Source: an uncultured archaeon (lineage in GTDB: Archaea; Aenigmatarchaeota; Aenigmatarchaeia; GW2011-AR5). From it: DNA of 64,000 nt. Below, in pieces: positions 7,631 to 60,130 of the stretch. The stretch covers positions 25,759 to 89,758 of the forward strand of contig CAYJTG010000003.1 in assembly GCA_964373255.1 (NCBI GenBank). Reading direction: 5' to 3'. Under the pieces are notes generated by a model. It did not search any database and was not told the origin of the DNA. It saw only the letters and a program-made list of their open reading frames with translations. A program made the translations under genes and the position numbers. Numbering within the stretch: position 1 is the first letter of the stretch; the number at the start of each line of letters is the position of its first letter.

Positions 7631-7663
7631 GTGATTAATTCTGAGAAGAAGCTTAAATTCTTT

Positions 7664-16101: not shown

Positions 16102-16146
16102 AGATTATTTAATATGAAAGCTTAAATCTAAGAATAGCATGTGGGC

Positions 16147-16974
16147 TTATATGGGTTTCCATTCTTTTATTGCCTTTTCATAGCCGTGCGGCGTGCCGAC
16201 GTCAAAAAGGAAGCCGTCATGAACAAATCCTGTAACACTTCCCTTGCTGCTCAGTATAGAAAACAGCTTGTCGGTCATGACCTTCCCGTTTGGCACGTAT
16301 CTTAGTGCTTCAGGCTCAAATATGTAGAAGCTCGCGTCTATTAGATTGGTAGGCGCGTTCAAAGGCTGGTCAATAAATTCTACCACCTGGTTGCCGTGCA
16401 TTCTCACAACACCGTATTCTGTAGGATCGTTCGAATTTGAAAGTAGGATGGTTGCAAGTGCGCCCTGTTTCCTGTGGAAATTAAATAGCTCTGGTATGTT
16501 AGGATTTATGAGCGTATCTACATTCAAGACCGCAAATGTGTCGTGTATTTTTCCCCTAAGAAGCCGCAGAGCCCCCATCTTGCCGAGAGGCTTTTGTTCT
16601 ACAATATAATCTATCTTAACGCCAAATTTGCTGCCATTACCAAAATGTTCAAATATCTTTTCGTGGTTCTCTCCTACAGTAAGAATGATATTTCTTATGT
16701 CAAATTCCTTTAACATGTTTATCTGGTGCTCCAGAACAGGGCGGCCTTTGATCGGTATAAGCGCCTTAGGTATCTCGTATGTTATTGGTCTCAGCATCGC
16801 ACCGTCGCCACCGGCCATTATTACAACTGTATTCAAGTCTGTTTTTGCAAGGCCTCTCATGATAAGTTGTTCAACCGCGTGTGACCTGTTTCTTACATCT
16901 TCATGGTCGATTGTCTTGTCCAGTTTCCTTAGTATGTCAGATTTTATTGTTATAGTAACGCGCTTAAGAGTCAT
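16147..16974 (-). CDS. Fusion protein: N-terminal ribbon-helix-helix (CopG/Arc-like) domain joined to a sugar-1-phosphate nucleotidyltransferase domain.
   Basis: The first ~45 aa 'KRVTITIKSDILRKLDKTI...RNRSHAVEQLIMRGL' fit a beta-alpha-alpha RHH. It is followed by the nucleotidyltransferase motif 'VVIMAGGDGAMLRPITYEIPKALIPIKGRPVLEHQI'. Confidence 0.65.
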   Translation of the reverse strand: MTLKRVTITIKSDILRKLDKTIDHEDVRNRSHAVEQLIMRGLAKTDLNTVVIMAGGDGAMLRPITYEIPKALIPIKGRPVLEHQINMLKEFDIRNIILTVGENHEKIFEHFGNGSKFGVKIDYIVEQKPLGKMGALRLLRGKIHDTFAVLNVDTLINPNIPELFNFHRKQGALATILLSNSNDPTEYGVVRMHGNQVVEFIDQPLNAPTNLIDASFYIFEPEALRYVPNGKVMTDKLFSILSSKGSVTGFVHDGFLFDVGTPHGYEKAIKEWKPI

Positions 16975-17092
16975 TCATACCACGTATCCACAAAAGTATG
17001 AAAAAGTATGAAATTCCAAACTATTTAAACGTGACATCTATGTTTATTGTTGTGGTTTCTGTGGAATTCAATCGACCACAACCACTAAATCT

Positions 17093-17100
17093 TTAAAATT
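17093..17100 (+). promoter_or_regulatory. Candidate archaeal TATA box (TTTAAAAT) for the heptose-kinase gene. The 16975-17120 region is shared by divergent promoters.
   Basis: The A/T box lies about 21 nt upstream of the ATG at 17121. The RHH-nucleotidyltransferase gene is transcribed divergently from the same region. Confidence 0.3.
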
Positions 17101-17120
17101 ATGTTACCAATGGTGTCACT

Positions 17121-18155
17121 ATGATAATAAGAAGCAGGTCTCCTGTCAGAATATCATTCGGCGGAGGCGGAACAGATATACCGCCTTACTGTTTTGAAAG
17201 GGGCGGCTGCGTAGTGTCGGCAACAATAAACAAATACTCCTATGCAACCCTGCAGAGCCGAGATGACCAAAAAATATTCGTAGAATCTGTCGATTTCCTG
17301 AAAAGCACGGTATTTGGAAATATGTCTGAAATCGTCTATAACAATGAGCTTGATGTCCTGAAAGCTGTAATAAAAAATCTCAATCATACAGGCATGGGCG
17401 CTAATATATGGATGAGAAGTGATGTTCCGCCGCGTTCTGGGCTGGGGTCTTCGGCGGCTGCGTTCGCAGCCATGATAGGTCTTTTCAATCACATGCGTGG
17501 TGAGAAGGCAATGACGAACTATGAAATTGCCGAGCTTGCCTACAAGTTAGAGAGGGAAGAGCTGAAAATAGGCGGCGGGTACCAGGACCAGTATGCAACT
17601 GTATTTGGCGGCATAAATTATATTGAGTTTGCAAGCAACGGTATAAAGGTAAATCCGATAAAAATGAAGAAAGATCACGTACTGGAGTTAGAAAAGCACC
17701 TTGTTATTGCCTACGCTGGCGAAAGGCAGGCAAGCGGCGACATAATTGAGGCTGAAAAGAAGGGTTACAAGGAAAATAAAGAAGTCTTTGAAGCGCTTGA
17801 AAAAACAAAACAAATTGCGCAGGAAATAAGATACGCGATAATAAGGGGTGATTTTGAGAGGCTCGGTGCATTGCTGCATGAATCATGGGAAACAAAGAAA
17901 AAACATTCTGCCTTGGTGTCGCACCAACGCATAAATGATATATACGATCTGGCTAGAAAGAATGGCGCCATAGGCGGTAAAGTGTCTGGTGCAGGTGGCG
18001 GAGGGTTTATGTTTTTCCTGTGCGAGCCTAACAAGGAACATAATGTTGTTGCTGCTCTGGAAAAAATCGGTGCTAAACCTGTCAACTTCACATTCGATTT
18101 CGATGGTCTGCAGACATGGGAGCCTGCAAACCGTACCCCCATGATTTTGAATTAA
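17121..18155 (+). CDS. hddA: GHMP-family sugar kinase, likely D-glycero-alpha-D-manno-heptose-7-phosphate kinase (HddA-like).
   Basis: GHMP motif 'PPRSGLGSSAAAFAAMIG'. C-terminal 'GGKVSGAGGGGFMFFL'. Sits in an operon with gmhA and the gmhB-hddC fusion. Confidence 0.65.
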   Translation: MIIRSRSPVRISFGGGGTDIPPYCFERGGCVVSATINKYSYATLQSRDDQKIFVESVDFLKSTVFGNMSEIVYNNELDVLKAVIKNLNHTGMGANIWMRSDVPPRSGLGSSAAAFAAMIGLFNHMRGEKAMTNYEIAELAYKLEREELKIGGGYQDQYATVFGGINYIEFASNGIKVNPIKMKKDHVLELEKHLVIAYAGERQASGDIIEAEKKGYKENKEVFEALEKTKQIAQEIRYAIIRGDFERLGALLHESWETKKKHSALVSHQRINDIYDLARKNGAIGGKVSGAGGGGFMFFLCEPNKEHNVVAALEKIGAKPVNFTFDFDGLQTWEPANRTPMILN

Positions 18156-18172
18156 AATGAAGAAGTGATGTT

Positions 18173-18748
18173 ATGAACTACCTAGAGGAAAAAATGAATC
18201 TTCATAAAAAAATGGTTGATTTATTGGATTTGAAATCAATAGAAAGGGTTGCGGATGCGATATCAAAATGCTATAGAAGCGATGGCAAACTATTGATATT
18301 CGGCAATGGCGGTTCTGCGGCCGATGCGCTTCACTTTGCTGCGGAGTTCGAGGGACAGCTATCATCTGTAGACAAAAATCGGAAAGCGCTGCCAGCCATA
18401 ACACCGTCTAATTTGTCTGCATTGACAGCCATAAGTAATGATTATAATTATGATACTAGCTTTCTCCGTTTTGTTCAAGCTAATGCAAGGTCTAGTGATG
18501 TTGTCGTAGGCATAAGTACAAGTGGCAATTCAAAAAATGTGATTAACGCAATAAAAGAAGCCAAGAACATTGGTGCAACAACAGTTGGCTTTACCGGTTA
18601 TGACGGCGGTCAGTTAAAAGACTTTGTTGACATCCTTATGAATGTTCCTGCTTCTAATGTTTCAATAATACAGGAAGGCCACATTATAGCTTATCATCGC
18701 GTATGTGCTCTTGTTATAAAGGAATTGTTTGGTTATGATGCATTATGA
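18173..18748 (+). CDS. gmhA: Phosphoheptose isomerase (sedoheptulose-7-phosphate isomerase), SIS domain.
   Basis: 'LIFGNGGSAADALHFAAEF' and 'VVGISTSGNSKNVINAIKEAKNIGATTVGFTGYDGG' closely match GmhA signature regions. Confidence 0.85.
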   Translation: MNYLEEKMNLHKKMVDLLDLKSIERVADAISKCYRSDGKLLIFGNGGSAADALHFAAEFEGQLSSVDKNRKALPAITPSNLSALTAISNDYNYDTSFLRFVQANARSSDVVVGISTSGNSKNVINAIKEAKNIGATTVGFTGYDGGQLKDFVDILMNVPASNVSIIQEGHIIAYHRVCALVIKELFGYDAL

Positions 18749-20013
18749 AGCCTGCAGTTTTTTTGGACAGGGATGGTGTAGTAATTACAGCAACGCACCT
18801 AGTTACGAAAATGCAGGAAGTCGAAATAGAAAAAAATGCGCCTGACGCAATAAGAATTTTTAATGATCTTGGATTCAAGGTAATAATAGTTACAAACCAG
18901 CCGCAAGTGGCCCGCGGCCTGTGCACAGAAGAAGACGTCATCAAGATAAATAAAAATATAAAGAAAACCATGGAAAAAGATGGAGCTATAATTGATGATA
19001 TATATTTCTGCCCGCATCATCCGGAGATGCATGAAGATGTGCCGGAGTATGCAAAAAAATATCGAATAGATTGTCGTTGCAGAAAACCGAAGACAGGGAT
19101 GATATTAGAGGCGGCAAAAAAACATGATATAGATCTTTCAAAATCATTTATGATCGGTGATCGCACGGTTGATGCGATGACAGGCAAGAATGCCGGCATA
19201 AAGACAATTCTAGTAAAAACTGGCAGAGCAGGAATGGATGGCAAATACGATACTATTCCTGATCATATATGCGCCGATCTGATGGAAGCTGCAAAACTTA
19301 TCAAAAGATCAGTTACAACCAAGGCTGTCATCCTAGCTGGTGGCAAGGGCGAACGCCTGATGCCATTAACAAAGGACATACCAAAGCCGATGATAGAAAT
19401 AAGCGGCAAGCCCGTCTTGCAGCATCATATAGGACTATTGAAGAAATACGGGATAAATGAAATAATAGTCTGTGCGAGCTATCTTATCGACAAGATAAAA
19501 GACTTTTTTGGAAATGGTAAAAATTTTGGTGTGCAAATATATTATCCCGATGAGCCTGAGCAGCTCGGCACAGGTGGCGCAATAAAGAACGCAGAACAAT
19601 TTATCAAAGGCTGCAAAAATTTTATTGTATTGAATGGCGATGTCGTGACAAACATAAATTTGTCTGCATTACTTGATTTTCACGAAACTAAGGACTGTTT
19701 AGCTACAATTGTTGTTCGTAAGAGTGATCATCCGATAGACAGCGATATCGTTCAGTTGGATGAGAACAGGGTTATAAGGTATATAGGCCGTGGGCAGAAA
19801 AAGCACAAAGTCGCAAATACAGGCATAATGATATTAAAAGCTAGCATACTCGGGCACATAAAGAAGGGTGTATCGAACATCGAGACAGACGTGGTGTTTC
19901 GCATGCTTGATGACTATAAAATTTGTGCATATTTTTCCAACGATTACATAAAGGACATGGGCACTTTTGACAGGCTTGAAAAGGTCCGTAGGGAATTTTC
20001 GCTGATTTCCTGA
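18745..20013 (+). CDS. gmhB-hddC: Bifunctional D,D-heptose-1,7-bisphosphate phosphatase (GmhB, HAD) fused to D-glycero-alpha-D-manno-heptose-1-phosphate guanylyltransferase (HddC-like nucleotidyltransferase).
   Basis: N-terminal 'AVFLDRDGVV', 'CPHHPE' and 'CRCRKPKTGM', which are GmhB motifs. C-terminal 'KAVILAGGKGERLMPLTKDIPKPMIEISGKPVL', a nucleotidyltransferase motif. Confidence 0.8.
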   Translation: MKPAVFLDRDGVVITATHLVTKMQEVEIEKNAPDAIRIFNDLGFKVIIVTNQPQVARGLCTEEDVIKINKNIKKTMEKDGAIIDDIYFCPHHPEMHEDVPEYAKKYRIDCRCRKPKTGMILEAAKKHDIDLSKSFMIGDRTVDAMTGKNAGIKTILVKTGRAGMDGKYDTIPDHICADLMEAAKLIKRSVTTKAVILAGGKGERLMPLTKDIPKPMIEISGKPVLQHHIGLLKKYGINEIIVCASYLIDKIKDFFGNGKNFGVQIYYPDEPEQLGTGGAIKNAEQFIKGCKNFIVLNGDVVTNINLSALLDFHETKDCLATIVVRKSDHPIDSDIVQLDENRVIRYIGRGQKKHKVANTGIMILKASILGHIKKGVSNIETDVVFRMLDDYKICAYFSNDYIKDMGTFDRLEKVRREFSLIS

Positions 20014-20032
20014 GCTTATAAATCTTTAGTTT

Positions 20033-20971
20033 ATGTTGATAGTTATGAAAATGCTTGTAACGGGCGGCGCGGGATTTATAGGCTCAAATCTAGCCGAAGC
20101 ACTTGTGAATGAGGGGCATGAGGTTATAGTGCTTGATAATTTCTCAATTGGCAGGGAGGCTAATCTAAAGAATGTACTAGATCATATAAAATTAGTAAGG
20201 GGCGATATAAGGGATTTTGAACTCCTGTTAAAAATCACGAAAGATATAGATGTTATATTCAATCAAGCGGCTGCATCGTCGTCACACATGTTTTTGGAGA
20301 ATCTGAAAGATGCCTTATCAGTCAACATAGACGGTTTTGTACATATCCTTAATGCCGCGAAGATTAACAACGTAAAGCGTGTTGTTTATGCATCAACATC
20401 ATCCTTGTACGGAAACAACAAGCCACCGTTAAGAGAGGATATGAAAATTGCGCCGGTAAATTTTTATGCATCATCTAAGCTTATGAATGAGCACATAGCA
20501 GCCTTGTACAGCCTTGAATACGGACTGGAGACAATAGGCCTTCGTTACATGAGCATATACGGTCCACGCGAAGAATGCAAGGGACGATTCGCAAACATGG
20601 TAAGCCAGTTCTTGTGGTCGATGCAGAAAAACGAGCAGCCGATAATTTACGGCGACGGCATGCAAACAAGAGATTTTACATTTGTAAAAGACGCTTGCAT
20701 GGCAAATATACTTGCAGCAACTGCCAAGAAGGGCATGAATGATATATTTAATGTTGGCACAGGCAAGTCGACAGATCTTAACAGGCTTGTAGAAATCCTT
20801 AATATGAAATTAAACAAAAGCGTAACACCAAAATACATATCAATGCCTATAAAGAACTACGTATTTTCACAGATGGCGGACATTGAAAAAATCAAGAACG
20901 CATTCGGCTATGAACCTAGATCTACGCTGGAAAAAGGTATCGATGAAATGCTTTCCACAACTCTCAAATGA
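20033..20971 (+). CDS. NAD-dependent NDP-sugar epimerase/dehydratase (extended SDR).
   Basis: 'LVTGGAGFIGSNL' Rossmann motif and a YxxxK context. 312 aa. Start likely at about 20045 (MKMLVTGG). Confidence 0.7.
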   Translation: MLIVMKMLVTGGAGFIGSNLAEALVNEGHEVIVLDNFSIGREANLKNVLDHIKLVRGDIRDFELLLKITKDIDVIFNQAAASSSHMFLENLKDALSVNIDGFVHILNAAKINNVKRVVYASTSSLYGNNKPPLREDMKIAPVNFYASSKLMNEHIAALYSLEYGLETIGLRYMSIYGPREECKGRFANMVSQFLWSMQKNEQPIIYGDGMQTRDFTFVKDACMANILAATAKKGMNDIFNVGTGKSTDLNRLVEILNMKLNKSVTPKYISMPIKNYVFSQMADIEKIKNAFGYEPRSTLEKGIDEMLSTTLK

Positions 20972-21656
20972 GTCCTATCCTTAGCTTAATTATGTTTATC
21001 AGCATTCTCGGCCCGTACTTAAGCTGAAACTTTGAATATTCACCATGCTTCCATATGACAGGTGCCTCAAATATTCTGCAGCCCTTCTTTTTCAGTCGCC
21101 AGAGCAATTCGACATCAAACTCGAATCCATACAGTTTCATATTATTCAGCACGCCTTTAGCTGCTTCTTTGCGAAAGACTTTTGCCCCGCATTGTGTGTC
21201 TTTTACATCAAGATTAAATAGTGTATTAACTATCACGTTGAACGTCTTGCTCGCTATGCGTCTACGCAGTGGCTGCTTTATCGAAATAATAGAATCTTTT
21301 GTGCGCCTAGACGCAATAACACAGTCATAAGATTTCAGGAATTCAAATAATTTGACATACTCTTCTGGCGTTATCGGTTCATCAGCGTCCATGAAGCCTA
21401 CAAGATTGCCGCTGCATCTGCGCAGGCCTTCAACAACGGCTTTCCCTTTTCCCATCCTTTTTTGCTTTATGAGCTTTATTCGCTTGTTATTTTTGGATAT
21501 TTCGCTTACAATCTTCGGCGTGTTGTCTATTGATCCATCAGAAACGACGATTATTTCGTAATCTTTTTTAGTTTTCGCAAGAAAACTGGAATAATCCTCT
21601 AGTGCTTTTTGTATTCTTTTTTCCTCATTAAAAGCAGGTATAACGATCGAATACAT
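20964..21656 (-). CDS. GT2-family glycosyltransferase, dolichyl-phosphate hexose synthase (DPM1-like) type.
   Basis: 'YSIVIPAFNEE', then 'VVSDGSIDNT' and 'MDADE' (DxD). 230 aa and soluble. Confidence 0.78.
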   Translation of the reverse strand: MYSIVIPAFNEEKRIQKALEDYSSFLAKTKKDYEIIVVSDGSIDNTPKIVSEISKNNKRIKLIKQKRMGKGKAVVEGLRRCSGNLVGFMDADEPITPEEYVKLFEFLKSYDCVIASRRTKDSIISIKQPLRRRIASKTFNVIVNTLFNLDVKDTQCGAKVFRKEAAKGVLNNMKLYGFEFDVELLWRLKKKGCRIFEAPVIWKHGEYSKFQLKYGPRMLINIIKLRIGLI

Positions 21657-21659
21657 AAT

Positions 21660-22763
21660 CTAAACCACGCTTTCGTATATTCTGATAAGTTTCTGTGCAA
21701 CAATTTGTTTATTGAATTTTTTTTGTATATGTAAACTTCCATATTTTCCGATTTTTTTATTTAGAGAATCGTCATTTAATAGTATATTTATATGTTCCTT
21801 CATTTGATCCCATTTCCCATAATCAACTAGAAAACCTGTCTTTTTATCCATAACAACTTCTGGAATACCACCTACCTTAGTAGAAACAACTGGTGTACCA
21901 CACGACTGTGACTCTGCTAGAACTCGGGAGAATGCCTCATACCTCGATGGAAGAATAACTACAGAAGCTTTATTATATAATTCAACAAGCTTAGAAAGAT
22001 TAATGTTTCTCAGGAATTCTATGCGTTTGTTTTTTCTAAGTTTTTTTATTGAATCTAACAAATGTCTGTCATACGAATTGCCAACAAAAAGTGCTTTTGT
22101 ATCTTTGTCGTCATTCAAAATTTTTTCTACAATATTGAATGCAATATCGGCACCTTTGTCTTTTGTAAAATTGCTCACAAATAGTATAAGTTTCTCTTTT
22201 TTTATATTTTTGTTTCTTTTGAAAATATTTATATCAACGATATTCGGAAGGATTTCCATATTTTTCAATGTTGCACCAATTTTGAGAAGTTGCATTCTTT
22301 CGTATTGTGTATGCGGCAATATTTTATCAGAAAATCTCAACAAAGGCAAACCCTGCGTCAAATGATAAGATACAAACTGAAGCCATCTAGAAAACCCATA
22401 AATAGGTGGGTGAAAATAGGGTCCAAATATATGCGGTACATTTAATTTTTTTGCTGCTAATAATCCAGCCGTTGCAGGAAAATATCCGTAGTGATGAGAA
22501 TGTACGATATCAAAATTTTCAGAAGCGATGGCGTTTATCATTTTTGATGAATAGTAGAAACGCCTGCCAAATAGGTGTTTTACAGGGATTCTTTTTATTT
22601 CTACATTACCTATGTTGTCTTCTAGCTTCCATCCCGTATTCCATTTTGTGAAAACTGTTATTTCATGCCCCCTTTCCGTTAGATAAGATACCAAGCCTTG
22701 ACAATAAAATGATGCACCTATAATTGATGGGTAGTACGCTGGTGTGACAAAGGCGATTCTCAT
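21660..22763 (-). CDS. GT4-family glycosyltransferase.
   Basis: GT-B fold. C-terminal 'E(x7)E'-like motif 'PSRYEAFSRVLAESQSCGTPVV'. Confidence 0.8.
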   Translation of the reverse strand: MRIAFVTPAYYPSIIGASFYCQGLVSYLTERGHEITVFTKWNTGWKLEDNIGNVEIKRIPVKHLFGRRFYYSSKMINAIASENFDIVHSHHYGYFPATAGLLAAKKLNVPHIFGPYFHPPIYGFSRWLQFVSYHLTQGLPLLRFSDKILPHTQYERMQLLKIGATLKNMEILPNIVDINIFKRNKNIKKEKLILFVSNFTKDKGADIAFNIVEKILNDDKDTKALFVGNSYDRHLLDSIKKLRKNKRIEFLRNINLSKLVELYNKASVVILPSRYEAFSRVLAESQSCGTPVVSTKVGGIPEVVMDKKTGFLVDYGKWDQMKEHINILLNDDSLNKKIGKYGSLHIQKKFNKQIVAQKLIRIYESVV

Positions 22764-22813
22764 ATCCTATTGTAATGTACAATAACTTTTAAACTGTGAT
22801 ATTTTTAATCAAG

Positions 22814-24346
22814 TCATTTCGCCCTACACATGTAAACAGACCTTAAATTAATCCCTCCTCTTGAAATTTCTTTTGTAAGCGTGCACTGCGCATCAAGGAT
22901 TTTTTCAATTTCTTTAGGTAGATTGCTATCATATGTAACATAAACACAGAACGCCAGATCTTGTTTTGTAACATTAGAAATAACAAATCCTGTTGGGTCT
23001 TTGTCAGGATCTACCGTTGATCGTGCAAATTCGCCTGTGACCTTTGAACAGTTTGATTTTACAAAATCTATGCCTTCCCTATAACCATCGAGCATCATTA
23101 TTTCGCTGTCTATGGGCTTGAAATTTGATATATTATCAAGCACATTGTAATGCAGCGTATAATTTGGATACGCATAAACAGACTCCGCGAAAACAGCTGT
23201 GCCAACCAAAAAAATAAACAGAATTTTCACATTGTTTTTCTTTATAAGGTCCAAGCTTCTTGCGCTTATTATGGCTATTAAAGGGATTATAGCAGTCATG
23301 TACCTGTATGTCCATCCATATCTCTGGAACCACAAAAGAATTAAAAATACGAAAAATATGAAAAGTACGCTTCTGTCTATGGATTTCCTCTTTCTAAATA
23401 TAGCTGCAAGTCCTAAAATCATAATGATTCCAAAAAATATGCTTTCTTTTGCCATAAAGATGAACAAATAGCCTATTACAGGTATGCTTATTATGTTGGA
23501 TTGTACGGATTTGCTGAAAACTTCCTGACGCCCGAATGCTGATGTAAGATACTCTTCTGGCGAGAGTATTATACCTGGCAAATTAAGTGTGAATGAATCG
23601 TCCCGTTGCGGAAAATCAACTACATTTCCATAGAAGTGGACCTTTATTGGATATAATGAAAATGGCCATATAATAAAAAAAGTCAATAGAGCTATCAAAA
23701 ATCCCTTCAAAAGAAAATTGTCTATCTCTATCCCTGTTCTTTGTTTTTTTTTGAACCTTATATTTTTTGAGATTATAGCGTGCAGAATGATAGCTATCAA
23801 AAGATAAAGAGACAGGTATTTTGTAAGAAGTGCCAGTCCTAAAAATATGCCGAATAAAACAATGTATTTTTTTGTTGGTTTTTTTATCATTGTAAAATAC
23901 GCAAAAAGTACCGTCAAATAGAAAAATCCAACTATGACTTCTGTCAGATAAAGTCTGCTGAATGTCAGATGTATAATAGAAAATGCTACTAGGATCGATG
24001 AGAAAATAGCAATATAAATATCGTAGTATCTTTTTGCAAAATAATAGGTGAGTCCTATAGTTGCTATACCAAATAAAGCTGGTATTATTCTTAATAAAAT
24101 CTCTGAAAATCCAAAGATACTATAAACAATAGCCCCCAAGTATTTCATGAAAGGCGGCGTAGCGTAATCATTAAAATTGTAGATGAAATTTCCACGTGCG
24201 TATTCTAGGGCTCCGCCAAAATGTGTTCCTTCATTCCAGCTAAATGCCTCCCAGTCAAGATTTGTCAGCCTCATGACAGCTGCGAGTAAAATTATAGCGA
24301 CTAAAACTGCGATTTCTATTTTATTGGTTTTTTTCATGTAAATCAT
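22814..24346 (-). CDS. GT-C-fold membrane glycosyltransferase of the PMT/ArnT type, which depends on polyprenol-phosphate-sugar donors.
   Basis: 510 aa. About 11 TM helices. N-terminal 'RLTNLDWEAFSWNEGTHFGGALEY' loop as in the GT39/GT83 family. Soluble C-terminal domain. Confidence 0.6.
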   Translation of the reverse strand: MIYMKKTNKIEIAVLVAIILLAAVMRLTNLDWEAFSWNEGTHFGGALEYARGNFIYNFNDYATPPFMKYLGAIVYSIFGFSEILLRIIPALFGIATIGLTYYFAKRYYDIYIAIFSSILVAFSIIHLTFSRLYLTEVIVGFFYLTVLFAYFTMIKKPTKKYIVLFGIFLGLALLTKYLSLYLLIAIILHAIISKNIRFKKKQRTGIEIDNFLLKGFLIALLTFFIIWPFSLYPIKVHFYGNVVDFPQRDDSFTLNLPGIILSPEEYLTSAFGRQEVFSKSVQSNIISIPVIGYLFIFMAKESIFFGIIMILGLAAIFRKRKSIDRSVLFIFFVFLILLWFQRYGWTYRYMTAIIPLIAIISARSLDLIKKNNVKILFIFLVGTAVFAESVYAYPNYTLHYNVLDNISNFKPIDSEIMMLDGYREGIDFVKSNCSKVTGEFARSTVDPDKDPTGFVISNVTKQDLAFCVYVTYDSNLPKEIEKILDAQCTLTKEISRGGINLRSVYMCRAK

Positions 24347-25278
24347 CTTTTTGATTTAAGCAAGCCAACGATTAATCCTGTAGCATACGCTATTTCCCGG
24401 ACAAATACTATCGTAAATAAGACGGGATAATAGCCAAGATTCTTTACTCTTAAAAGTATGTAAAAAGGTTTTAAAATGAAATAAAGAACGATGAGAATTA
24501 CCCAAATGAAAAGTGGAAATGTATTTGTTATTGACACCAGCAAAAGAATTATTGTAACAATAACAGAACCAAAAATAATTATATCATACGGCGTTATCAT
24601 GTCTTTGTGCATTTTTATCAAATCTATTTTTGAAATCCCGTTTCGATAGATCTGATTAAATACGCCCCCCAGATTTTTTCTCCTAGAATGATAAACCTTT
24701 ATGTCTGGATTAAATTTTATATTAAAGCCGTTCTTAAAAAGCCGGTGAATGAATTCTGGCTCTTGAAGTCCTACCAGTTTTCTGTTAAAATTAGATTCTT
24801 TGAATATGTTGCTCCTGAATGCTATGTTGCATGCACGCAATCTGTTGCAAGCATCATTCCCATATAGAGTGTTTTTAGGAGTCCTGACAAAATCTATCAT
24901 AAATAAAGCATTTTGAAACTTCGTAGATTTATCAGCATCTATTATATCATCGCCTCCAACCACATCTATATCATCATTCTTGAATTCGTTTACCAGATTG
25001 CTTAGCCAGTCTTTTGATGCTGTACAATCATCGTCTATAAATGCTACTATATCGCCTTTAGCACGTATAGATCCTATATGATAGGCATTACCAATCGTAT
25101 TCAAATCATCTTCAAACCACTTACACCCTAATTTTTTTGCCAATGATATGACACTGTCATTATTTGGAGAAACAATAATTGTTTCGTAAATTTTTGTAGA
25201 CTGCTTTTTCAAACTTTTTATACAGTTTATTAGATCTTTTGAGTTATTTCTTGTAGGGACTACAACAGAAACTTTCAT
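24343..25278 (-). CDS. GT2-family glycosyltransferase with C-terminal TM helices.
   Basis: 'VSVVVPTRNN', 'DDDC' (DxD). Hydrophobic C-terminal 80 aa. Confidence 0.75.
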   Translation of the reverse strand: MKVSVVVPTRNNSKDLINCIKSLKKQSTKIYETIIVSPNNDSVISLAKKLGCKWFEDDLNTIGNAYHIGSIRAKGDIVAFIDDDCTASKDWLSNLVNEFKNDDIDVVGGDDIIDADKSTKFQNALFMIDFVRTPKNTLYGNDACNRLRACNIAFRSNIFKESNFNRKLVGLQEPEFIHRLFKNGFNIKFNPDIKVYHSRRKNLGGVFNQIYRNGISKIDLIKMHKDMITPYDIIIFGSVIVTIILLLVSITNTFPLFIWVILIVLYFILKPFYILLRVKNLGYYPVLFTIVFVREIAYATGLIVGLLKSKR

Positions 25279-26897
25279 GCAATTACACCTGTAACATTAT
25301 ATATTAAAACGGAGTACGCCACCATATCATAATGTGTATAATTTTCAAGCCATCCATAGCAATTTTTATCGAGTGTGAGAAAAAATACACCAACGATATG
25401 TATACCATTTTGAGGTATGCATTTTTCTCTTACATACGATTTAACATAATTATTTGTATAAGATTCAGGAAGTGGTAGTGATAAATAAGCTACTGTTATA
25501 TTTTTCTCTTTTGTGTAAGACGAAACATATTTTAGCCACTGCCCCCAATCCACGTCTGTATCACTTAAATAAAGATAGCCATTTTTTGGTCCACCAACAA
25601 ATTCATTAAAGTAAGATATATTATATGGTAGTATAAGCAGTGCTTCTACTACACTCCACAAAATAAGTAAAATAACAACAATATAAAATAATCTTTTTTT
25701 ACTACCCGAAAATTTTACATGCAAAATTTTACCTAGCATAACAAACATGAAAGGATACATAGGTAAGAGATGCCTAAGACCTATATTTAGTTTTAATAAT
25801 GACAATGCAACAAACAATACAAATAGGGGCAATAAGAGGAAAATTTCATTATAGAAATCAAACTTAATTTTTCTCAAGGCAAATGTAAAAAATAATAGAA
25901 CAAACAGTATTAGAGGTATAGTAGATTTGATTAAAAAAGCTAAGATATAATAGTGAATCCAGCCAGTACTAGAGTATTCGCCAAATAAATATGCGCCGTG
26001 CCCTACGATTTTATGATAGAAATTGTACCCAAATGCAGTAAAATAACTCGTCGCAGGAAGAGGAACATCCATTAAAGTTATAATAGTATTTTTATTACTG
26101 CTAAATGTTTGATTGATGAAATCTTGCGATTTCTCGATAGAATGAACAGTATTATTAATCGTAGACATCTGAAATCCATAAAATGCCCATATTACGATAA
26201 ATGATATTAGATAATAGATTATAATTAATCTTATATTTTTTCGCACCGATCTGAAAATATATAAAAATAGAAACAAGGTTATTGGTATTAATAAAAGTGC
26301 AGTAAATTTACTCAAAAGGGCAAGTCCTAAAAATAAACCTGCTATTATTGAATATTTAATTGTTTTATTGCTGCTAAATTTCCAAAAAACATACATTGCT
26401 ATGAATATAAATGTAGCAGCCACGATGTCTGTGGTTGCCAGAGAGCTATGTGCCAATATAGTTGGTTCAAAGCTGAATAGTGCAAGAACAAACAAAGCTG
26501 CTTTGTCACCATATAGTTTTCGAGCCCATATAAAAATAAAAACACCTAAAATTAAGGACGTAAAAGCAATAGGTAATCGTGTAATAAATAAATAGTAATC
26601 TATTTCATAAGAGTTTGCAATGTTTGACATGTTGAATGGTTTATTTTGCCATACAGGATTATTGTCAAAATAGAGGAAAAAACTGTTAATATAATAAGCC
26701 AGTGGTGGATGAAACCTGTATGCAAAAGGTGAAAAATCTCCGTGCTGTACAGTATAGCGTCCTGTACCTGGATAGAATTGTTCGTCAAGGACGGGCGATT
26801 GTGATGAAATTATGTAAATAATTTGCAAAAGCATGAAAATCAGAATTAATGCTGCGATAATTTCTGTCCTTTTTTTTGTGATATGAACTAAATGCAT
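25275..26897 (-). CDS. GT-C-fold membrane glycosyltransferase of the PMT_2/ArnT type, a second paralog.
   Basis: 540 aa and polytopic. N-terminal 'LDEQFYPGTGRYTVQHGDF...YRFHPPLAYYI' loop typical of PMT_2. Confidence 0.6.
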   Translation of the reverse strand: MHLVHITKKRTEIIAALILIFMLLQIIYIISSQSPVLDEQFYPGTGRYTVQHGDFSPFAYRFHPPLAYYINSFFLYFDNNPVWQNKPFNMSNIANSYEIDYYLFITRLPIAFTSLILGVFIFIWARKLYGDKAALFVLALFSFEPTILAHSSLATTDIVAATFIFIAMYVFWKFSSNKTIKYSIIAGLFLGLALLSKFTALLLIPITLFLFLYIFRSVRKNIRLIIIYYLISFIVIWAFYGFQMSTINNTVHSIEKSQDFINQTFSSNKNTIITLMDVPLPATSYFTAFGYNFYHKIVGHGAYLFGEYSSTGWIHYYILAFLIKSTIPLILFVLLFFTFALRKIKFDFYNEIFLLLPLFVLFVALSLLKLNIGLRHLLPMYPFMFVMLGKILHVKFSGSKKRLFYIVVILLILWSVVEALLILPYNISYFNEFVGGPKNGYLYLSDTDVDWGQWLKYVSSYTKEKNITVAYLSLPLPESYTNNYVKSYVREKCIPQNGIHIVGVFFLTLDKNCYGWLENYTHYDMVAYSVLIYNVTGVIA

Positions 26898-26940
26898 AAA
26901 ATCATCTCTATAGTTATAGAAAAAATTAAATTACGCAAAA

Positions 26941-27915
26941 TTAATCATAGACATTTTTTCCTTCTCTCTTCCACCATTCCACAGTAGATTTAATTCCATC
27001 TTCTATACCAACTTTTGGTGACCACCCTAGCAATTTCCTAGCCTTTTCTATGGATGCCCGAGTTTCTGAGGGATCAGAAGGGTCACGCTTACCGTATTTT
27101 ATTTCTGCCTTCTTTCCAGTATGCATTTCTATGAGTTGCACAATGCTTGAAATCTCTATCATCCTGCCGCTGCCTATGTTGAAGAAATTGCAGCCTCTTT
27201 TCTTTGACTCAAGGCATTTTCTGAGTGCCTGAACAACATCGCTGATAAAAACAAAGTCACGCTTCAGTCTGCCGTGGTCGTACAGTGTTATCGGAATTCC
27301 CGCGTCGATATTCATGATGAATTTCTGTATTGCCATGTCAGGCCTGCTTCTTGGGCCGAACACAGTAAATAGTCTCGGTCCAAATACAGTGATTCCATAC
27401 AGACTGTTGTAAACTGAGCACATAACTTCACATTCTTTTTTTGTGGAAGCGTAGACAGACGTTGGATTGTCGGTTGGCGTATCTTCCGAGAAAGGTGGCT
27501 TCTCATTTCCGTAAACTGCTGACGTTGATGCAAACACAATTTTATTTACGTCAAATTTTCTTGAGCATTCAAGAATAACAGATGTCCCGTAGACATTTGA
27601 TCTTACGTATTCGAGGGGCTTTTCTGCGGATTCGCGGACGCCCGCTTTTCCAGCCAAATGAAATATAACGTCAAAGCTGTTTTCTTTGAATATATTTTCC
27701 ATTGACTTGTAATTACTAACGTCGTCATCAATAATTTTGACGCCTAGGTTCTTTAGAAGTGCTACGTTATGATTTTTTATCGGTCTTTTATAGAAATTAT
27801 CAAAATTGTCTACAACAATTACATGAAAATTTTGCATTGCAAGCTTCTCAGCAACATGCGAGCCTATAAAGCCGGCGCCGCCTGTAATCAGGATAGTGCT
27901 TTCTTTGTTTTTCAT
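26941..27915 (-). CDS. NAD-dependent NDP-sugar epimerase/dehydratase, UDP-sugar 4-epimerase-like.
   Basis: 'ILITGGAGFIGSHV' and a YASTK-type 'VYASTKKECE' motif. 324 aa. Confidence 0.75.
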   Translation of the reverse strand: MKNKESTILITGGAGFIGSHVAEKLAMQNFHVIVVDNFDNFYKRPIKNHNVALLKNLGVKIIDDDVSNYKSMENIFKENSFDVIFHLAGKAGVRESAEKPLEYVRSNVYGTSVILECSRKFDVNKIVFASTSAVYGNEKPPFSEDTPTDNPTSVYASTKKECEVMCSVYNSLYGITVFGPRLFTVFGPRSRPDMAIQKFIMNIDAGIPITLYDHGRLKRDFVFISDVVQALRKCLESKKRGCNFFNIGSGRMIEISSIVQLIEMHTGKKAEIKYGKRDPSDPSETRASIEKARKLLGWSPKVGIEDGIKSTVEWWKREGKNVYD

Positions 27916-27920
27916 AAGTC

Positions 27921-28643
27921 TTAATTTCTAGAAAGTTTTTTAAACACACTTTGTTTCCTTATAAGTTTCAGCCTGAGAATAAGCACGTCAAGGAACATCT
28001 TTAGCGGGTCCAGTTTTCCTATCTTTGTATCCTCCTTGTGAACCCAGTATATAGGCATTTGATAAAGACTGTAATTATTTTTCCTTATTTTGTAGAACAG
28101 TTCGACATCGAACACCCATCTGTTGCTTTTCATATCTCTAAAAATATTTCTGGCGATTTCTTTTTTAAACCCCTTGAAGCCACAAAGGGTATCCTTTATT
28201 CTTATACCAAAAATTATATTCACGTATGAATTGAAAATCGTACCAAGAGCCTTACGTATTAGTGGCTGCTTCTTCACAACGGATTTTTCCGATGCCCGCG
28301 TGCCGACGACCACATCATATTTTTCGATAAATTCTTCCATGTTTTTTATTTCATCCGGGTCTATGGAACCGTCGGCATCTATAAAAATTACGTACTTGCC
28401 CATTGAAGCCATGACGCCAGTCTTTACGGCGTGACCCTTTCCCATATTCCTTTTGTAAGAAACAAGCCGCACATTCTTTCTGCCTTTTACCATAGAGTCC
28501 ACAACTTTTTCTGTGCTGTCAGTGGACCCGTCATTCACAATTATTATATCATATTTGCCTGGGGTGCAAACTTTGAGCAATTTGTTTAGGAACGGCGTGA
28601 CCCTTGTTTCCTCATTGTAGCACGGTACGACTATTGTTATCAT
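27921..28643 (-). CDS. GT2-family glycosyltransferase, dolichyl-phosphate hexose synthase type.
   Basis: 'MITIVVPCYNEE', 'VNDGSTDST', 'IDADGS'. 240 aa. Confidence 0.8.
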   Translation of the reverse strand: MITIVVPCYNEETRVTPFLNKLLKVCTPGKYDIIIVNDGSTDSTEKVVDSMVKGRKNVRLVSYKRNMGKGHAVKTGVMASMGKYVIFIDADGSIDPDEIKNMEEFIEKYDVVVGTRASEKSVVKKQPLIRKALGTIFNSYVNIIFGIRIKDTLCGFKGFKKEIARNIFRDMKSNRWVFDVELFYKIRKNNYSLYQMPIYWVHKEDTKIGKLDPLKMFLDVLILRLKLIRKQSVFKKLSRN

Positions 28644-29797
28644 TTAATCAGCTTTGTTGCATTGTATAAATCAAGATATTTATTAAGTACTTTTTGCTTG
28701 TCGAATTTTTTTGATAATTTTATCGATTCCTGTGACATTATTTTTGAAGTTTTTTTATTTGAAAGTATGTATATTATAGCCTTTGATATATCATCGCTAT
28801 TTTTCCGCCTGACAAATACAGCGCACCGGCGGTTAAGTACTTCTTTTGTCCCGGAAACCTTTGTAGCTATTACCGGAAGACCTGCTGTAATAGCTTCCAT
28901 AACCACAAGTGGCATACCCTCCCTGAGTGAAGGCAACACAAAGACGTCTGCAGACGAATATATTTCTGGTAGTTTATAGAATGGTACCGTACCTGCAAAA
29001 TAAACATTATTTTCTATCTTATATTCTTTGGTTACTTTTATCCAAGGATTTTCTTTCAAATCCTGTTCGTGTTCAAGACCACCAACTAACACAAATTTTA
29101 CATTTTTGAATTTTTCCGCAACCTTTTTTACAGACTTCAGCAAATATGGAATACCTTTTGTTTCTGTCAATTTTCCTACAAAAAGCACAACAGGCCCATT
29201 TATTTTGTTTTTTATTTTCCATGACTTGTTTGAAGATTTAGAAAATGTTCCTGATTGCGTAAAATTCTCTATAGTGATCACTTTATCACCTTTTATGCCC
29301 CTTGATATCATTCCACTTCTCATGGAGTCTGCAACGGCTGTCGCCATGTTAGACTTTTTTATCACAAAGCCCTCAAGCCTGTTGAAAACCCTGTTCGCAA
29401 CGCCTATCTCTTTGTCGGGAACTGTCCACGCAGGGCTGTGAGACGTATATACAATTTTTGTTTTCTTTGGCAGAAATTCTCTGAAAAGCATTATAGGAAA
29501 TGCCGTAAATGTAGTATGCATATGAAGTATGTCAGGTTTTATTGCTCTTATTTTCTTAATACATTTTATGCCGTACAACAAATCTTCTATGATTGCAAGC
29601 AATTTGTTGGATCTTATAGCTGAGTCTACAATCACGTAATCGGCGATTTTTTTGCTTGTCGATTTTCTTGAAACGATGCTTACATTTTCACCATTTCTTT
29701 GCAAATATTTTGCAAGCTCGTAGACTATTATTTCGATGGCCCCGCTTTTTTCAGGTGGTACAGATACCTGGCTTGAACATAAAAGCATTATACTCAT
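28640..29797 (-). CDS. GT4-family glycosyltransferase.
   Basis: GT-B fold. 'LPSLREGMPLVVMEAITAGLPVIATKVSG'. Confidence 0.8.
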   Translation of the reverse strand: MSIMLLCSSQVSVPPEKSGAIEIIVYELAKYLQRNGENVSIVSRKSTSKKIADYVIVDSAIRSNKLLAIIEDLLYGIKCIKKIRAIKPDILHMHTTFTAFPIMLFREFLPKKTKIVYTSHSPAWTVPDKEIGVANRVFNRLEGFVIKKSNMATAVADSMRSGMISRGIKGDKVITIENFTQSGTFSKSSNKSWKIKNKINGPVVLFVGKLTETKGIPYLLKSVKKVAEKFKNVKFVLVGGLEHEQDLKENPWIKVTKEYKIENNVYFAGTVPFYKLPEIYSSADVFVLPSLREGMPLVVMEAITAGLPVIATKVSGTKEVLNRRCAVFVRRKNSDDISKAIIYILSNKKTSKIMSQESIKLSKKFDKQKVLNKYLDLYNATKLIK

Positions 29798-29859: not shown

Positions 29860-30555
29860 ATGGAAGTTACAGAAATCGAAAAAATGTCTGATATCGAAGA
29901 CAATCATTGGTGGTTTTGTGGCAAAAGAGATTTGGTAAAAAAACATATAGGAAACAAATCTGGCTTACTGCTTGATATAGGTTGTGGGACTGGCGCCAAT
30001 TTAAAGGCATTCTCACAATCGGCTAATTCAGTTGGTGTCGAATTTTCAAAAGACGCACTTAAATTATGCAGAAACCGTGTCGATAACCATCTAGTAAGGT
30101 GCTCTGCGGAAAAACTTCCTTTCAAAAACAGCATATTTAACAGCATAACAATACTGGATGTTCTTGAACACTTGGATAAAGATGTAGATTCTATGAAAGA
30201 AATCAGGCGTGTATTAAAAATTTCCGGGAAGGCTATAATTTCTGTACCTGCTCACATGTTTCTATGGGACGAGCATGATGTTCTTCTTCACCACAAAAGA
30301 AGATATTCGATGAAAGAGCTAGAATGCAAGTTGAAGAAAACGGGATTTTATATCAAAAAAATTTCTTATTGGAACTTCTTGTTATTTCCGTTGGTTGCCG
30401 TTTATAAATTCTTAAATAATGGCACTGATACAAAAAAAACTAATATGTATCTAAATGCGCTTTTGTACTCTGTGCTTTCAATCGATAATTTTCTAATAAA
30501 AAGAATGTATTTGCCTATTGGTGTATCTATTTTTTGTGTTGCCGAGAAGCAATAG
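29860..30555 (+). CDS. Class I SAM-dependent methyltransferase.
   Basis: Motif I 'LLDIGCGTGAN'. Motif post-I 'ITILDVLEHL'. Confidence 0.78.
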   Translation: MEVTEIEKMSDIEDNHWWFCGKRDLVKKHIGNKSGLLLDIGCGTGANLKAFSQSANSVGVEFSKDALKLCRNRVDNHLVRCSAEKLPFKNSIFNSITILDVLEHLDKDVDSMKEIRRVLKISGKAIISVPAHMFLWDEHDVLLHHKRRYSMKELECKLKKTGFYIKKISYWNFLLFPLVAVYKFLNNGTDTKKTNMYLNALLYSVLSIDNFLIKRMYLPIGVSIFCVAEKQ

Positions 30556-31711
30556 CGTCTTCAAACGCATCTTCGTATAATTTTACCAATTTGTTCCAAT
30601 CGAAATCTTTAACCTTCTTATAATTGTTCGAGATAAATTTATTTCTCATAGTTTTGTTAGAAAGTATCTTAATTATCGCATTAGCCAATTTATCAGGATT
30701 TTTAGGTTCCACAAGCAGGCCGTTCTTGTTATTTTCTACTATTTCCGGAATTCCAGCAACGTTCGTAGTTATGATAGGGCAACCACTGGCCATGGCTTCT
30801 ATGAATACGATTCCAAACCCTTCATAAAGCGTAGGAAGCACGAAAACGTCTGCCGACTTGTAAGCATCTATTTTCTCCTGTTCGTCGAGAAATCCGATAA
30901 ATTCTATATTTTTGTCTAGCCCTAGTTTATGGCATAAGTTTTCTATTTCGTTATTTTTTTTATAACCTACAAAAACGCATTTTACATTAGGAAATTTTTT
31001 AATTACCTGTTTCATAGCTTGCACAAGATACTCTGGACCTTTGCGTGGTATTGGCTGTCCAACAAAAAGTATCATTTCTTCTTCAATCTCATATTTTTCC
31101 CTGAAGTTGCCTTTCTTTTTATTAAATATGTCAAGGTCAACTCCTATAGGCATATGTCTTATACGACCTTCTGTAACGCCAAACTTCTTGATTTCCTGCA
31201 TTTCCCATTGAGTGAGTGCACCTACGATATCGGATTTAAAAAGAGGCAAGTGGGAAAACCAGTTTTTTAATCTAAGTGGATTTAACGGAAACGAATTTTG
31301 CATACCATTATACTTTATTTGGTACGATAGTGGATCGTCTATTGTCTTTACTACATAAGGATCATGGTAAAGTCCCATAACGTTGTGAACCACTGGTATG
31401 TTTTTCATTTTCTTCCTTATCGTCGCATAACTGGATATGGAAGCCATAAATCCCATGAAATGCGCATTTATAACGTCAAAATCATTTTTTAGCATGTAGA
31501 CGAGAGAAGAAGGAAAATATGGATTGAATCTTCGCACATTTATACCGTCTATATTTTCTACTTTTCTTGCATCATGAATTTTCATGACAGAACTGGATGT
31601 TAGCACAGTTACTTCATGCCCTTTTTCTATTAGTTTTTTTGCCAACGCATACTCTGTCCAGCCTTTTATGCCGCGAACAACGCCACCACATGTTGTTATC
31701 AATATTCTCAT
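30527..31711 (-). CDS. GT4-family glycosyltransferase.
   Basis: 'VLPTLYEGFGIVFIEAMASGCPIITTNVAGIPE'. Confidence 0.85.
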   Translation of the reverse strand: MRILITTCGGVVRGIKGWTEYALAKKLIEKGHEVTVLTSSSVMKIHDARKVENIDGINVRRFNPYFPSSLVYMLKNDFDVINAHFMGFMASISSYATIRKKMKNIPVVHNVMGLYHDPYVVKTIDDPLSYQIKYNGMQNSFPLNPLRLKNWFSHLPLFKSDIVGALTQWEMQEIKKFGVTEGRIRHMPIGVDLDIFNKKKGNFREKYEIEEEMILFVGQPIPRKGPEYLVQAMKQVIKKFPNVKCVFVGYKKNNEIENLCHKLGLDKNIEFIGFLDEQEKIDAYKSADVFVLPTLYEGFGIVFIEAMASGCPIITTNVAGIPEIVENNKNGLLVEPKNPDKLANAIIKILSNKTMRNKFISNNYKKVKDFDWNKLVKLYEDAFEDAIASRQHKK

Positions 31712-31914
31712 AGATTTAGTAAATCTGTTAAATTTAAATATTAATGTTGTACACTATAGATGACCCTCCTTGCGTTTAAAACCGCAGGTTTTTGCTAGTG
31801 CTAAAAGAAGGTCACGTTATGTGTTCCTGCCATACGAGCACATCTCAGGGCTTGCCTATTTATGATTTTGTGCTAATTGAGATTTGTACAGCCCTCTAGA
31901 TACACGGTGAAAAA

Positions 31915-32604: not shown

Positions 32605-32630
32605 CTACGACGAGGAGATAATTGTTTGCA

Positions 32631-60115: not shown

Positions 60116-60130
60116 AACGTCTCTTGATGA

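Follow-up and report, generated by a model that had tools for sequence, protein, structure and literature searches.

Two unrelated GT-C proteins, each paired with a small GT2 protein, in a conserved glycosylation cassette of an uncultured archaeon

We analysed a 64,000-nucleotide stretch of a metagenomic contig from an uncultured archaeon of the Aenigmatarchaeota (contig CAYJTG010000003.1, positions 25,759 to 89,758; hereafter the window, in whose positions all coordinates are given unless a related locus is named). The subject of this analysis is a gene cassette encoding two large polytopic glycosyltransferases with the GT-C fold (GT-C1 and GT-C2) and two small glycosyltransferases of family GT2 (GT2a and GT2b). 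The window is archaeal, as shown by its genes for CDC48, Orc1/Cdc6, a family-B DNA polymerase and archaeal-type SecD/SecF. The listing of open reading frames (ORFs) revealed eight genes packed on the minus strand from 29797 down to 20964, with neighbours spaced by 3-50 nt or overlapping by 4 nt, forming one operon-like array:

28640-29797, minus strand: GT4b, the first gene of the array, 385 amino acids (aa); Pfam Glycos_transf_1, 8e-37
27921-28643, minus strand: GT2b, 240 aa, a GT2 protein without transmembrane (TM) helices; Pfam Glycos_transf_2, E 2e-32
26941-27915, minus strand: SDR protein of the nucleoside diphosphate (NDP)-sugar epimerase/dehydratase type, 324 aa; Pfam Epimerase, 5e-56, and GDP_Man_Dehyd, 7e-57
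25275-26897, minus strand: GT-C2, 540 aa, GT-C fold with about 11 TM helices; Pfam PMT_2, E 1e-12
24343-25278, minus strand: GT2mid, a GT2 protein of 311 aa; Pfam GT2, 1.5e-18
22814-24346, minus strand: GT-C1, 510 aa, GT-C fold, from a rare family; Pfam PMT_2, E 3e-18
21660-22763, minus strand: GT4a, a cytoplasmic GT4 (GT-B) protein of 367 aa; Pfam Glycos_transf_1, 1e-37
20964-21656, minus strand: GT2a, 230 aa, a GT2 protein without TM helices; Pfam Glycos_transf_2, E 3e-31

The tight gaps and overlaps suggest that the eight genes are co-transcribed and that translation is coupled at the overlaps, such as the 4 nt shared by the stop of GT4b and the start of GT2b. Four of these genes (GT2b, GT-C2, GT-C1 and GT2a) had been picked out in an initial annotation made from the DNA letters, and their ORFs, all on the minus strand and each with an ATG start, match the coordinates given there exactly. 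The fold and family assignments made there hold as well, with the two small proteins being GT2 proteins that resemble lipid-phosphate-sugar synthases and the two large ones GT-C proteins with PMT_2 matches.

GT2a and GT2b are paralogues that share 38% identity over their full length. A hydropathy scan found no TM helix in either protein, and each contains a DAD (DxD) motif (residues 90-92 of GT2a and 89-91 of GT2b), as in the GT-A catalytic domain of GT2 enzymes. Residues 3-201 of GT2a align with residues 26-220 of the dolichyl-phosphate (Dol-P)-mannose synthase of P. furiosus (PfDPMS) at E 3e-16, and the best PDB matches of GT2b are GtrB (1e-17), ArnC (1e-11) and PfDPMS (2e-10); for both proteins, GtrB (sll0501) and ArnC rank among the closest proteins of known structure, with alignments that cover part of the protein. 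Alignments of GT2b to NCBIfam models are near full length for AglJ (residues 2-216), PpgS (3-202) and the Dol-P-hexose transferase model (8-215), the PpgS model also covers residues 4-210 of GT2a, and PgfS is among the top NCBIfam matches of both proteins. Polysaccharide synthases (chondroitin synthase, PgaC and TagF) match only the N-terminal 100-140 residues, and the matches that span the acceptor-side half are exclusively polyprenyl- or dolichyl-phosphate sugar synthases. The DADG and KDTQCG(F/A)K motifs of the small proteins presumably resemble those of ALG5-type Dol-P-glucose synthases more than those of DPM1. The C-terminus of each protein is a basic amphipathic segment, which could rest on the membrane surface. 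Based on these observations, we suggest that GT2a and GT2b are probably of the lipid-phosphate-sugar synthase type, and that the term "DPM1-like" can serve as a label for this class, not as a signature.

GT-C1 and GT-C2 both match PMT_2 and adopt the GT-C fold in AlphaFold2 (AF2) models (pLDDT 77 and 93.3, respectively), and the hydropathy scan detected 9-12 hydrophobic segments in each. Pfam PMT also matches both proteins, weakly and over part of the sequence (about 1e-9); the PMT, PMT_2 and GT2 matches are all above the Pfam gathering scores. Identity to any solved GT-C is 9-19%. When the models were compared with solved structures, ArnT was the top match of both (TM-score 0.56 for GT-C1), statistically tied with Pmt4 and ALG12, and AglB came next. 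We had considered reading the acceptor from the closest solved structure and dropped this because of the tie.

The two GT-C proteins belong to different families. BLASTP aligned them over a single 86-residue stretch at E 0.03, and this short match, together with very different family sizes and distributions, led us to reject a recent duplication of one GT-C gene. The initial annotation had described the whole arrangement as a duplication, which applies to the paralogous small GT2 proteins but not to the GT-Cs, one of which is widespread and the other rare. For GT-C2, a word-indexed search returned 218 relatives, and an alignment-based scan of a collection of species-representative genomes found at least 590 related loci, in Omnitrophota, Verrucomicrobiota, Desulfobacterota/Geobacter, Chloroflexota, Planctomycetota, Elusimicrobiota, Patescibacteria, Methanosarcinales and Altiarchaeota; a scan of genome contigs with the single GT-C2 sequence confirmed no relatives, whereas the alignment-based scan succeeded. 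For GT-C1, there were three close relatives among 5.8 billion proteins, and an exhaustive profile search of 1.84 billion cluster representatives returned 24 at E<1e-30. One GT-C2 homologue (P0017) is fused to TPR repeats, recalling the TMTC enzymes.

Both families have strictly conserved residues. In GT-C2, D38, E39, R107, K197 and R375 are invariant in 40 of 40 sequences, and D38-E39 is predicted to lie in the first outside loop. The C-terminal domain of GT-C2 contains the highly conserved motif Y(L)AYFNEFVGGPxNGYKYLVDSNLDWGQ, which takes the form Y(L)xYFNEFVGGPxNGYxYLxDxxxDWGQ in the family. The first-loop motif of GT-C1 is SWN38-E39, in which E39 is invariant in 18 of 18 family members and is preceded by N, D, S or G; R86, R348, Cys433, Cys467 and Cys507 are also invariant, and Cys488 nearly so. 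We considered whether Asn38 marks GT-C1 as a dead enzyme and rejected this, because the position varies within the family while E39 does not. With regard to topology, both proteins have K/R-rich N-termini and an odd number of TM helices in their AF2 models; all four N-X-S/T sequons and all four cysteines of GT-C1 fall within its C-terminal 118 residues, and half of the GT-C2 sequons fall in the C-terminal domain. These features predict that the N-termini are inside and that the acidic first loop and the C-terminal domain are outside. The external position of the acidic loop supposed by the initial annotation agrees with them, as one prediction agrees with another.

In order to examine the cassette in other genomes, we compared the loci carrying GT-C1 orthologues. 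Searches that included a metagenome scan with a narrow alignment gave five independent loci (L003, L004/L086 from one contig, L087, L088 and L089), with 44-62% identity to GT-C1. Their gene content is as follows:

L003: GT4b, GT2b, GT-C2, GT2mid, GT-C1, GT4a, GT2a and heptose genes, which is the order of the window minus the SDR gene
L004/L086: GT-C2, a methyltransferase, GT2mid, GT-C1 and GT4a
L087: GT-C2, a GT2a-type gene and GT-C1
L088: GT-C2, GT-C1 and a GT2a-type gene
L089: a GT2b-type gene, GT-C2, a 124-aa ORF, a second GT-C2 and GT-C1, with heptose genes, GT4a and GT2mid nearby

In all five loci, GT-C1 is closely preceded by a GT-C2 homologue. A GT2b-type gene is directly upstream of GT-C2 in L003 and L089, and a GT2a-type gene is zero to one genes away from GT-C1 in L003, L087 and L088. 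In both L003 and L004/L086, GT-C2 and GT-C1 enclose the GT2mid orthologue, and the GT4a orthologue directly follows GT-C1; L089 has both orthologues in the vicinity. In L003, the GT4b orthologue upstream of GT2b is a fragment, and the SDR gene is missing from its place between GT2b and GT-C2, so that GT2b abuts GT-C2. Heptose genes flank the cassette in L003 and L089 as they do in the window. The adjacency of GT2b-type genes to GT-C2 and of GT2a-type genes to GT-C1 is thus kept while other genes change, and this bears out the earlier proposal that each small GT2 protein is paired with one GT-C. That two unrelated GT-C families recur in tandem, each accompanied by its own GT2 protein lacking TM helices, is a new although modest finding. 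We propose, from sequence and gene order, that GT2b is the putative donor synthase for GT-C2 and GT2a the putative donor synthase for GT-C1.

Linkage between small GT2 genes and the GT-C2 family extends beyond these loci. More distant GT-C2 homologues were compared in 79 genome loci; in 10 of these, an adjacent gene encodes a short GT2 protein (at most 300 aa) that matches GT2a/b over its full length, and such a gene is found no more than 2 kb away in 14 loci and no more than 5 kb away in 19. GT2 genes are the commonest among the genes flanking GT-C2 homologues (14 of 124), followed by PMT_2 (9) and YfhO (4). The linkage is therefore real, but far from universal. The neighbours of the GT-C2 family (L006-L084) also include TPR proteins and radical-SAM enzymes. 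A further observation comes from L089, in which tandem GT-C2 paralogues are followed by GT-C1 and a flippase-like LPG_synthase_TM protein is encoded directly upstream of another small GT2 gene (4330-9524 and 15846-17509 of that locus); the 124-aa ORF between the two GT-C2 copies was considered as a GtrA candidate, and Pfam gave no match for it.

The cassette lies in a glycan-biosynthesis island of about 16 to 47 kb, which encodes five GT4 proteins, three membrane-anchored GT2 proteins, at least five methyltransferases, a UDP-glucose/GDP-mannose-type dehydrogenase, further SDR proteins and nucleotidyltransferases. Three features in and beside the island are important for its interpretation:

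17121-20971, plus strand: genes of the GDP-glycero-manno-heptose pathway, convergent with the operon; Pfam and NCBIfam matches
40008-41522, minus strand: Wzx/MATE-like flippase; Pfam Polysacc_synt, 6e-27, Polysacc_synt_3, 7e-20, and MatE, 7e-8
47183-49541, minus strand: AglB/STT3 oligosaccharyltransferase, in two ORFs overlapping by 8 nt, just outside the island

The presence of AglB nearby gives the island an N-glycosylation setting. Its ORF at 48354-49541 encodes the N-terminal TM part of AglB (Pfam STT3, 2e-27; archaeo_STT3, 5e-26), and the ORF at 47183-48361 encodes more hydrophobic segments, a YWDPG motif equivalent to WWDYG, and the soluble domain; this arrangement is either a genuine split or the result of a frameshift or assembly error. 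The Wzx/MATE-like gene is the only flippase-like gene among the scanned ORFs of the window, and its product is a candidate translocator of the lipid-linked glycan, of Dol-P-sugars or of both. The heptose set consists of a GHMP kinase (HddA-like), a GmhA-type SIS isomerase, a GmhB-HddC fusion and a heptose-epimerase-like SDR protein, with scores of 2.7e-43 for GmhB, 8e-33 for HddC and 2.6e-54 for the heptose epimerase model, and the epimerase gene overlaps the 3' end of GT2a tail to tail. On the other side of the heptose genes, the minus-strand ORF at 14227-16101 encodes a 624-aa protein whose N-terminus is signal-like and whose C-terminus is hydrophobic, with a lamin-tail (LTD) domain and a stretch rich in Ser, Thr and Gly. 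The protein contains 27 N-X-S/T sequons where 15 are expected from its composition, or 4.3 per 100 aa as against 0.2-0.6 in the cytoplasmic window proteins that were checked. We regard it as a candidate glycoprotein of the S-layer or cell surface, on which the enzymes of the island might act.

Based on these results, we suggest the following mechanism. First, GT2b and GT2a would each charge dolichyl phosphate with one monosaccharide from a nucleotide sugar at the cytoplasmic face, probably contacting the membrane through the basic amphipathic C-terminal helix. Second, the resulting Dol-P-sugars would cross the membrane, for which the Wzx/MATE-like protein and the GT-Cs themselves are candidates. 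Third, on the outside, GT-C2 would use the donor from GT2b and GT-C1 that from GT2a, and each would move its sugar to an acceptor by means of the acidic residue or residues of the first loop. The likeliest acceptor would be the glycan built by the surrounding island with its GT4 proteins, membrane-anchored GT2 proteins, methyltransferases, Wzx and AglB, and transfer might take place while this glycan is still on dolichol or after it has reached the protein, as with AglD/AglR/AglS in Haloferax. We give this explanation as a whole a probability of about 0.5. Its general part, namely two modules of a lipid-phosphate-sugar synthase and a GT-C working outside the cell, had already been predicted in the initial annotation; it is well supported by the conserved linkage and pairing and, as far as sequence can tell, is likely to be correct. 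The more specific proposal that the acceptor is the N-glycan of the island, on lipid or on protein, is tentative and falls somewhat short of even odds.

The nature of the transferred sugars needs separate consideration. The donors had been called Dol-P-hexoses, but the evidence does not fix the sugars as hexoses, and GDP-heptose genes accompany the cassette. Because the GT2a gene abuts the GDP-glycero-manno-heptose genes here and in related loci, one could imagine that GT2a makes Dol-P-heptose and that GT-C1 transfers it outside, which we regard as a long shot. To our knowledge, although the literature was not searched for it, no Dol-P-heptose donor has been described. A heptose-containing archaeal N-glycan is known from Thermoplasma (PMC11407970).

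Several observations weigh against the mechanism that we favour. First, GT2a and GT2b score far below every curated NCBIfam cut-off (41-76 bits against 325-529 for AglJ, PpgS, ArnC, PgfS and the Dol-P-hexose transferase), including 76 bits against 325 for AglJ, the best match that covers most of GT2b, and 51 and 60 bits (GT2a and GT2b) against 370 for PpgS. In PfDPMS and GtrB the DxD motif continues as DAD-L-Q, whereas GT2a has DAD-E-P and GT2b has DAD-G-S, and the missing Gln is the residue that completes the metal site in DPMS and GtrB. The "DPM1 signature" ascribed to both proteins is therefore not borne out. Second, Asn38 of GT-C1 stands where most PMT_2 relatives carry the first Asp. Third, the families of GT-C1 and GT-C2 are uncharacterised and have no studied member. 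Fourth, the tie between ArnT, Pmt4 and ALG12 means that the acceptor, whether lipid, protein or lipid-linked glycan, cannot be read from the fold. Clustering with the aminoarabinose lipid-A transferases had been named beforehand as grounds for abandoning a role in protein glycosylation; ArnT is indeed the top match, but Pmt4 and ALG12 score the same, which makes this comparison uninformative. Fifth, only 13-24% of the loci of the GT-C2 family have a small GT2 gene nearby, and GT-C2 homologues are frequent in bacteria without AglB, so that the family as a whole is not tied to an N-glycan acceptor. Sixth, no GtrA-family match was found among the scanned ORFs, which comprise nearly all window ORFs of at least 150 aa; smaller ORFs were listed for 14-36 kb only, overlap larger genes and were left out of the scan. 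Finally, no AglH/WecA (HPT)- or WbaP-type priming transferase was found among the scanned window ORFs, and a small GT2 protein might therefore serve as an AglJ-like initiator instead.

Among the alternatives, direct O-glycosylation of proteins survives best, although we consider it unlikely. One or both GT-Cs would place the Dol-P-linked sugar on Ser/Thr residues of secreted proteins, like the PMTs, the mycobacterial Pmt and the streptococcal PgfS/PgfM1. The Pfam PMT and PMT_2 matches of both GT-Cs would fit this role, as would the match of the small GT2 proteins to PgfS, a GtrB-type enzyme of a protein O-glycosylation system, the Ser/Thr/Gly-rich stretch of the neighbouring surface protein, and the N_methyl (type IV pilin-like) motif found in 4 of the 124 genes that flank GT-C2 homologues in bacteria. 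However, the bacterial Pmt model (NF058602) gives GT-C1 20 bits against a cut-off of 800 and does not match GT-C2, identity to solved PMTs is at most 24% in partial alignments, and the genes are embedded among oligosaccharide-building enzymes close to AglB. In addition, O-mannosylation had not been described in archaea as of 2016 (PMC4973528).

A rather improbable alternative is that one or both small GT2 proteins are AglJ/AglK-like initiators acting on dolichyl phosphate, with the GT4 and membrane GT2 proteins extending the glycan, Wzx flipping it and AglB transferring it, and with the donors of the GT-Cs made elsewhere. In Euryarchaeota, this is the very reaction with which N-glycan assembly on Dol-P begins. 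Each small GT2 gene adjoins a GT4 gene, AglJ is the best match over residues 2-216 of GT2b, and an initiator would fill the place of the priming transferase missing from the scanned ORFs. On the contrary, the AglJ score is less than a quarter of its cut-off, and a priming enzyme may be encoded beyond the 64-kb window. Moreover, short GT2a/b-like genes repeatedly adjoin GT-C2-family genes in distant bacteria and archaea, and the GT2a-type/GT-C1 and GT2b-type/GT-C2 adjacencies are retained despite gene turnover.

It is quite improbable that GT-C1 is an Agl23-like flippase helper with the GT-C fold, acting on a Dol-P-sugar or a lipid-linked glycan, and is not, or not only, a transferase, which would leave GT-C2 as the sole transferase. 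Purified Haloarcula Agl23 is reported to flip M5GN2-PP-Dol in liposomes and to rescue a yeast rft1 deletion (PMC11182771). TIGR03663, the Agl23 model, is the best NCBIfam match of GT-C1 and, weakly, of 16 of the 18 family members (best E 1.7e-17), GT-C1 is accompanied by GT-C2 in every locus found, Asn replaces its first acidic residue, and GtrA-type flippases were not seen among the scanned ORFs. However, GT-C1 reaches half of the TIGR03663 cut-off (63.6 against 126.25 bits), several family members have D before E39, and the family strictly conserves E39, R86, R348 and several external-domain cysteines, as expected for an active GT-C with an external acceptor-binding domain. GT-C1 also has its own cognate GT2a-type neighbour, and a Wzx-type flippase is already encoded in the island.

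The acceptor is very unlikely to be a lipid of the membrane or a polysaccharide, whether secreted or on the cell surface, as for ArnT, YfhO and Emb/Aft: although ArnT is the top structural match of both GT-Cs, the GT-C2 family is mostly bacterial with PMT_2 and YfhO GT-Cs among its neighbours, and the island resembles a Wzx-dependent polysaccharide cluster, ArnT is statistically tied with Pmt4 and ALG12, archaea have no lipid A, AglB and the sequon-rich surface protein flank the island, and no Wzy-type polymerase was recognised among the scanned window ORFs. Relatedness to ArnT itself is low, in that ArnT (5ezm) was matched by GT-C1 at E 8e-4 and not by GT-C2 in phmmer, with 11-13% identity in structural alignments. 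The ArnT NCBIfam model matched neither GT-C at E<=0.01, and it weakly matches 9 of the 18 GT-C1-family members (best E 3e-11).

When we compared our favoured explanation, two pairs of a donor synthase and an external GT-C, with characterised systems, the locus appeared to act like a known kind of system, while its proteins remain below the curated thresholds for ArnT, PMT, Agl23 and the named Dol-P-sugar synthases. The closest precedent is AglD/AglR/AglS of Haloferax volcanii, which are described as a Dol-P-mannose synthase, a flippase-associated protein and a Dol-P-Man mannosyltransferase that adds the last N-glycan sugar outside (PMC3871713). The two systems are archaeal, both have (here by prediction) a Dol-P-sugar made by a GT2 protein and used by a polytopic transferase on the outer face, and in both the genes lie in an agl-type island with AglB and a Wzx-like protein. 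They differ in that the present locus has two modules instead of one, in that its synthases are proteins of 230-240 aa without TM helices, and in that the cassette is accompanied by GDP-heptose genes; the NCBIfam scans of the window proteins returned no model named after AglS. In Haloarcula hispanica, Agl22/Agl23 similarly combines a small GT2 protein, a Dol-P-hexose synthase, with a polytopic PMT_2-like TIGR03663 protein that is credited with flippase activity (PMC11182771). GT-C2 differs from Agl23 in having no TIGR03663 match and GT-C1 in its low score, and Agl23 is described there as a flippase and not as a transferase.

Bacterial three-component glycosylation systems offer a further precedent, including GtrB/GtrA/Gtr*, CsbB/GtcA/YfhO, PgfS/PgfM1, ArnC/ArnT and polyprenyl-phosphoribose synthase/MATE/GT136 (PMC11127046). 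They follow the same logic of a GT2 lipid-phosphate-sugar synthase, a flipping step and a GT-C outside, and the bacterial pentofuranose systems share a MATE/Wzx-like flippase with the present island (PMC11127046). In contrast, the carrier expected here is dolichol and not undecaprenol, the GtrA component of the Gtr systems has no counterpart among the scanned window ORFs, and GT2a and GT2b have neither the two C-terminal TM helices nor the Gln of DADLQ that are found in GtrB and ArnC. The missing GtrA-type flippase and the recurrent association with GDP-heptose genes are also new features of the cassette. In mycobacteria, PpgS (Rv3631), a polyprenyl-P-GalNAc synthase without TM helices, has the GT-C protein Rv3779 as its partner. 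GT2a and GT2b resemble PpgS in being small synthase-type proteins without TM helices over nearly the whole length of which its model aligns; they differ from it in their low scores, and the acceptor of the PpgS system is arabinogalactan, which archaea do not have.

Few extracytoplasmic glycosylation steps are known in archaea, namely those of AglS and Agl22/Agl23, and the conserved cassette gives clear biochemical predictions for two GT-C families that have not been studied. GT-C1 stands closest to the Agl23 family, for which it is disputed whether the members are transferases or flippases. Once known, the donors and acceptors of this locus would annotate a large block of "GT39-like" genes and would bear on how lipid-linked sugars pass across archaeal membranes.

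The remaining genes of the operon fit the same context. The SDR protein scored 185.6 bits with the GalE NCBIfam model, below the cut-off of 262.3, and is possibly the maker of the nucleotide sugar used by GT2b. GT2mid has two C-terminal TM helices (residues 233-251 and 286-304 in the hydropathy scan) and weak NCBIfam matches to MftF, HpsN, EpsD and AglG, and it is probably a transferase at the cytoplasmic face that extends the lipid-linked glycan. In the operon, the count of sigma-70 promoter-like motifs was modestly above the shuffled mean and that of terminators below expectation, in a scan that is ill-suited to an archaeon.

The operon lies within a stretch of low GC content (about 20000-44000; 31-38% compared with 41-48% in the flanks), which would fit a glycosylation island that is variable or has been exchanged horizontally. 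Within the heptose set, the fusion gene at 18745-20013 on the plus strand encodes 422 aa and joins a GmhB-type heptose-bisphosphate phosphatase to an HddC-type heptose-1-phosphate guanylyltransferase, and the same fusion occurs in L089. At least five genes for S-adenosylmethionine (SAM)-dependent methyltransferases are interspersed among the glycosyltransferase genes (29860-34027 and 44923-45447), which suggests that the sugars of the product are heavily methylated. Adjoining AglB, a gene at 49717-50829 on the minus strand encodes an FAD-dependent protein resembling geranylgeranyl reductases (Lycopene_cycl and FAD_binding_3 matches), which could be a polyprenol or dolichol reductase.

Scans of the window for tRNAs and Rfam families gave no matches. 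At 56200-61390 on the minus strand, Orc1/Cdc6, a metallophosphoesterase and the family-B DNA polymerase are encoded next to each other, and the metallophosphoesterase weakly matches the DNA polymerase small subunit B (E 5e-4, under the Pfam gathering score). A replication origin may lie near this region.

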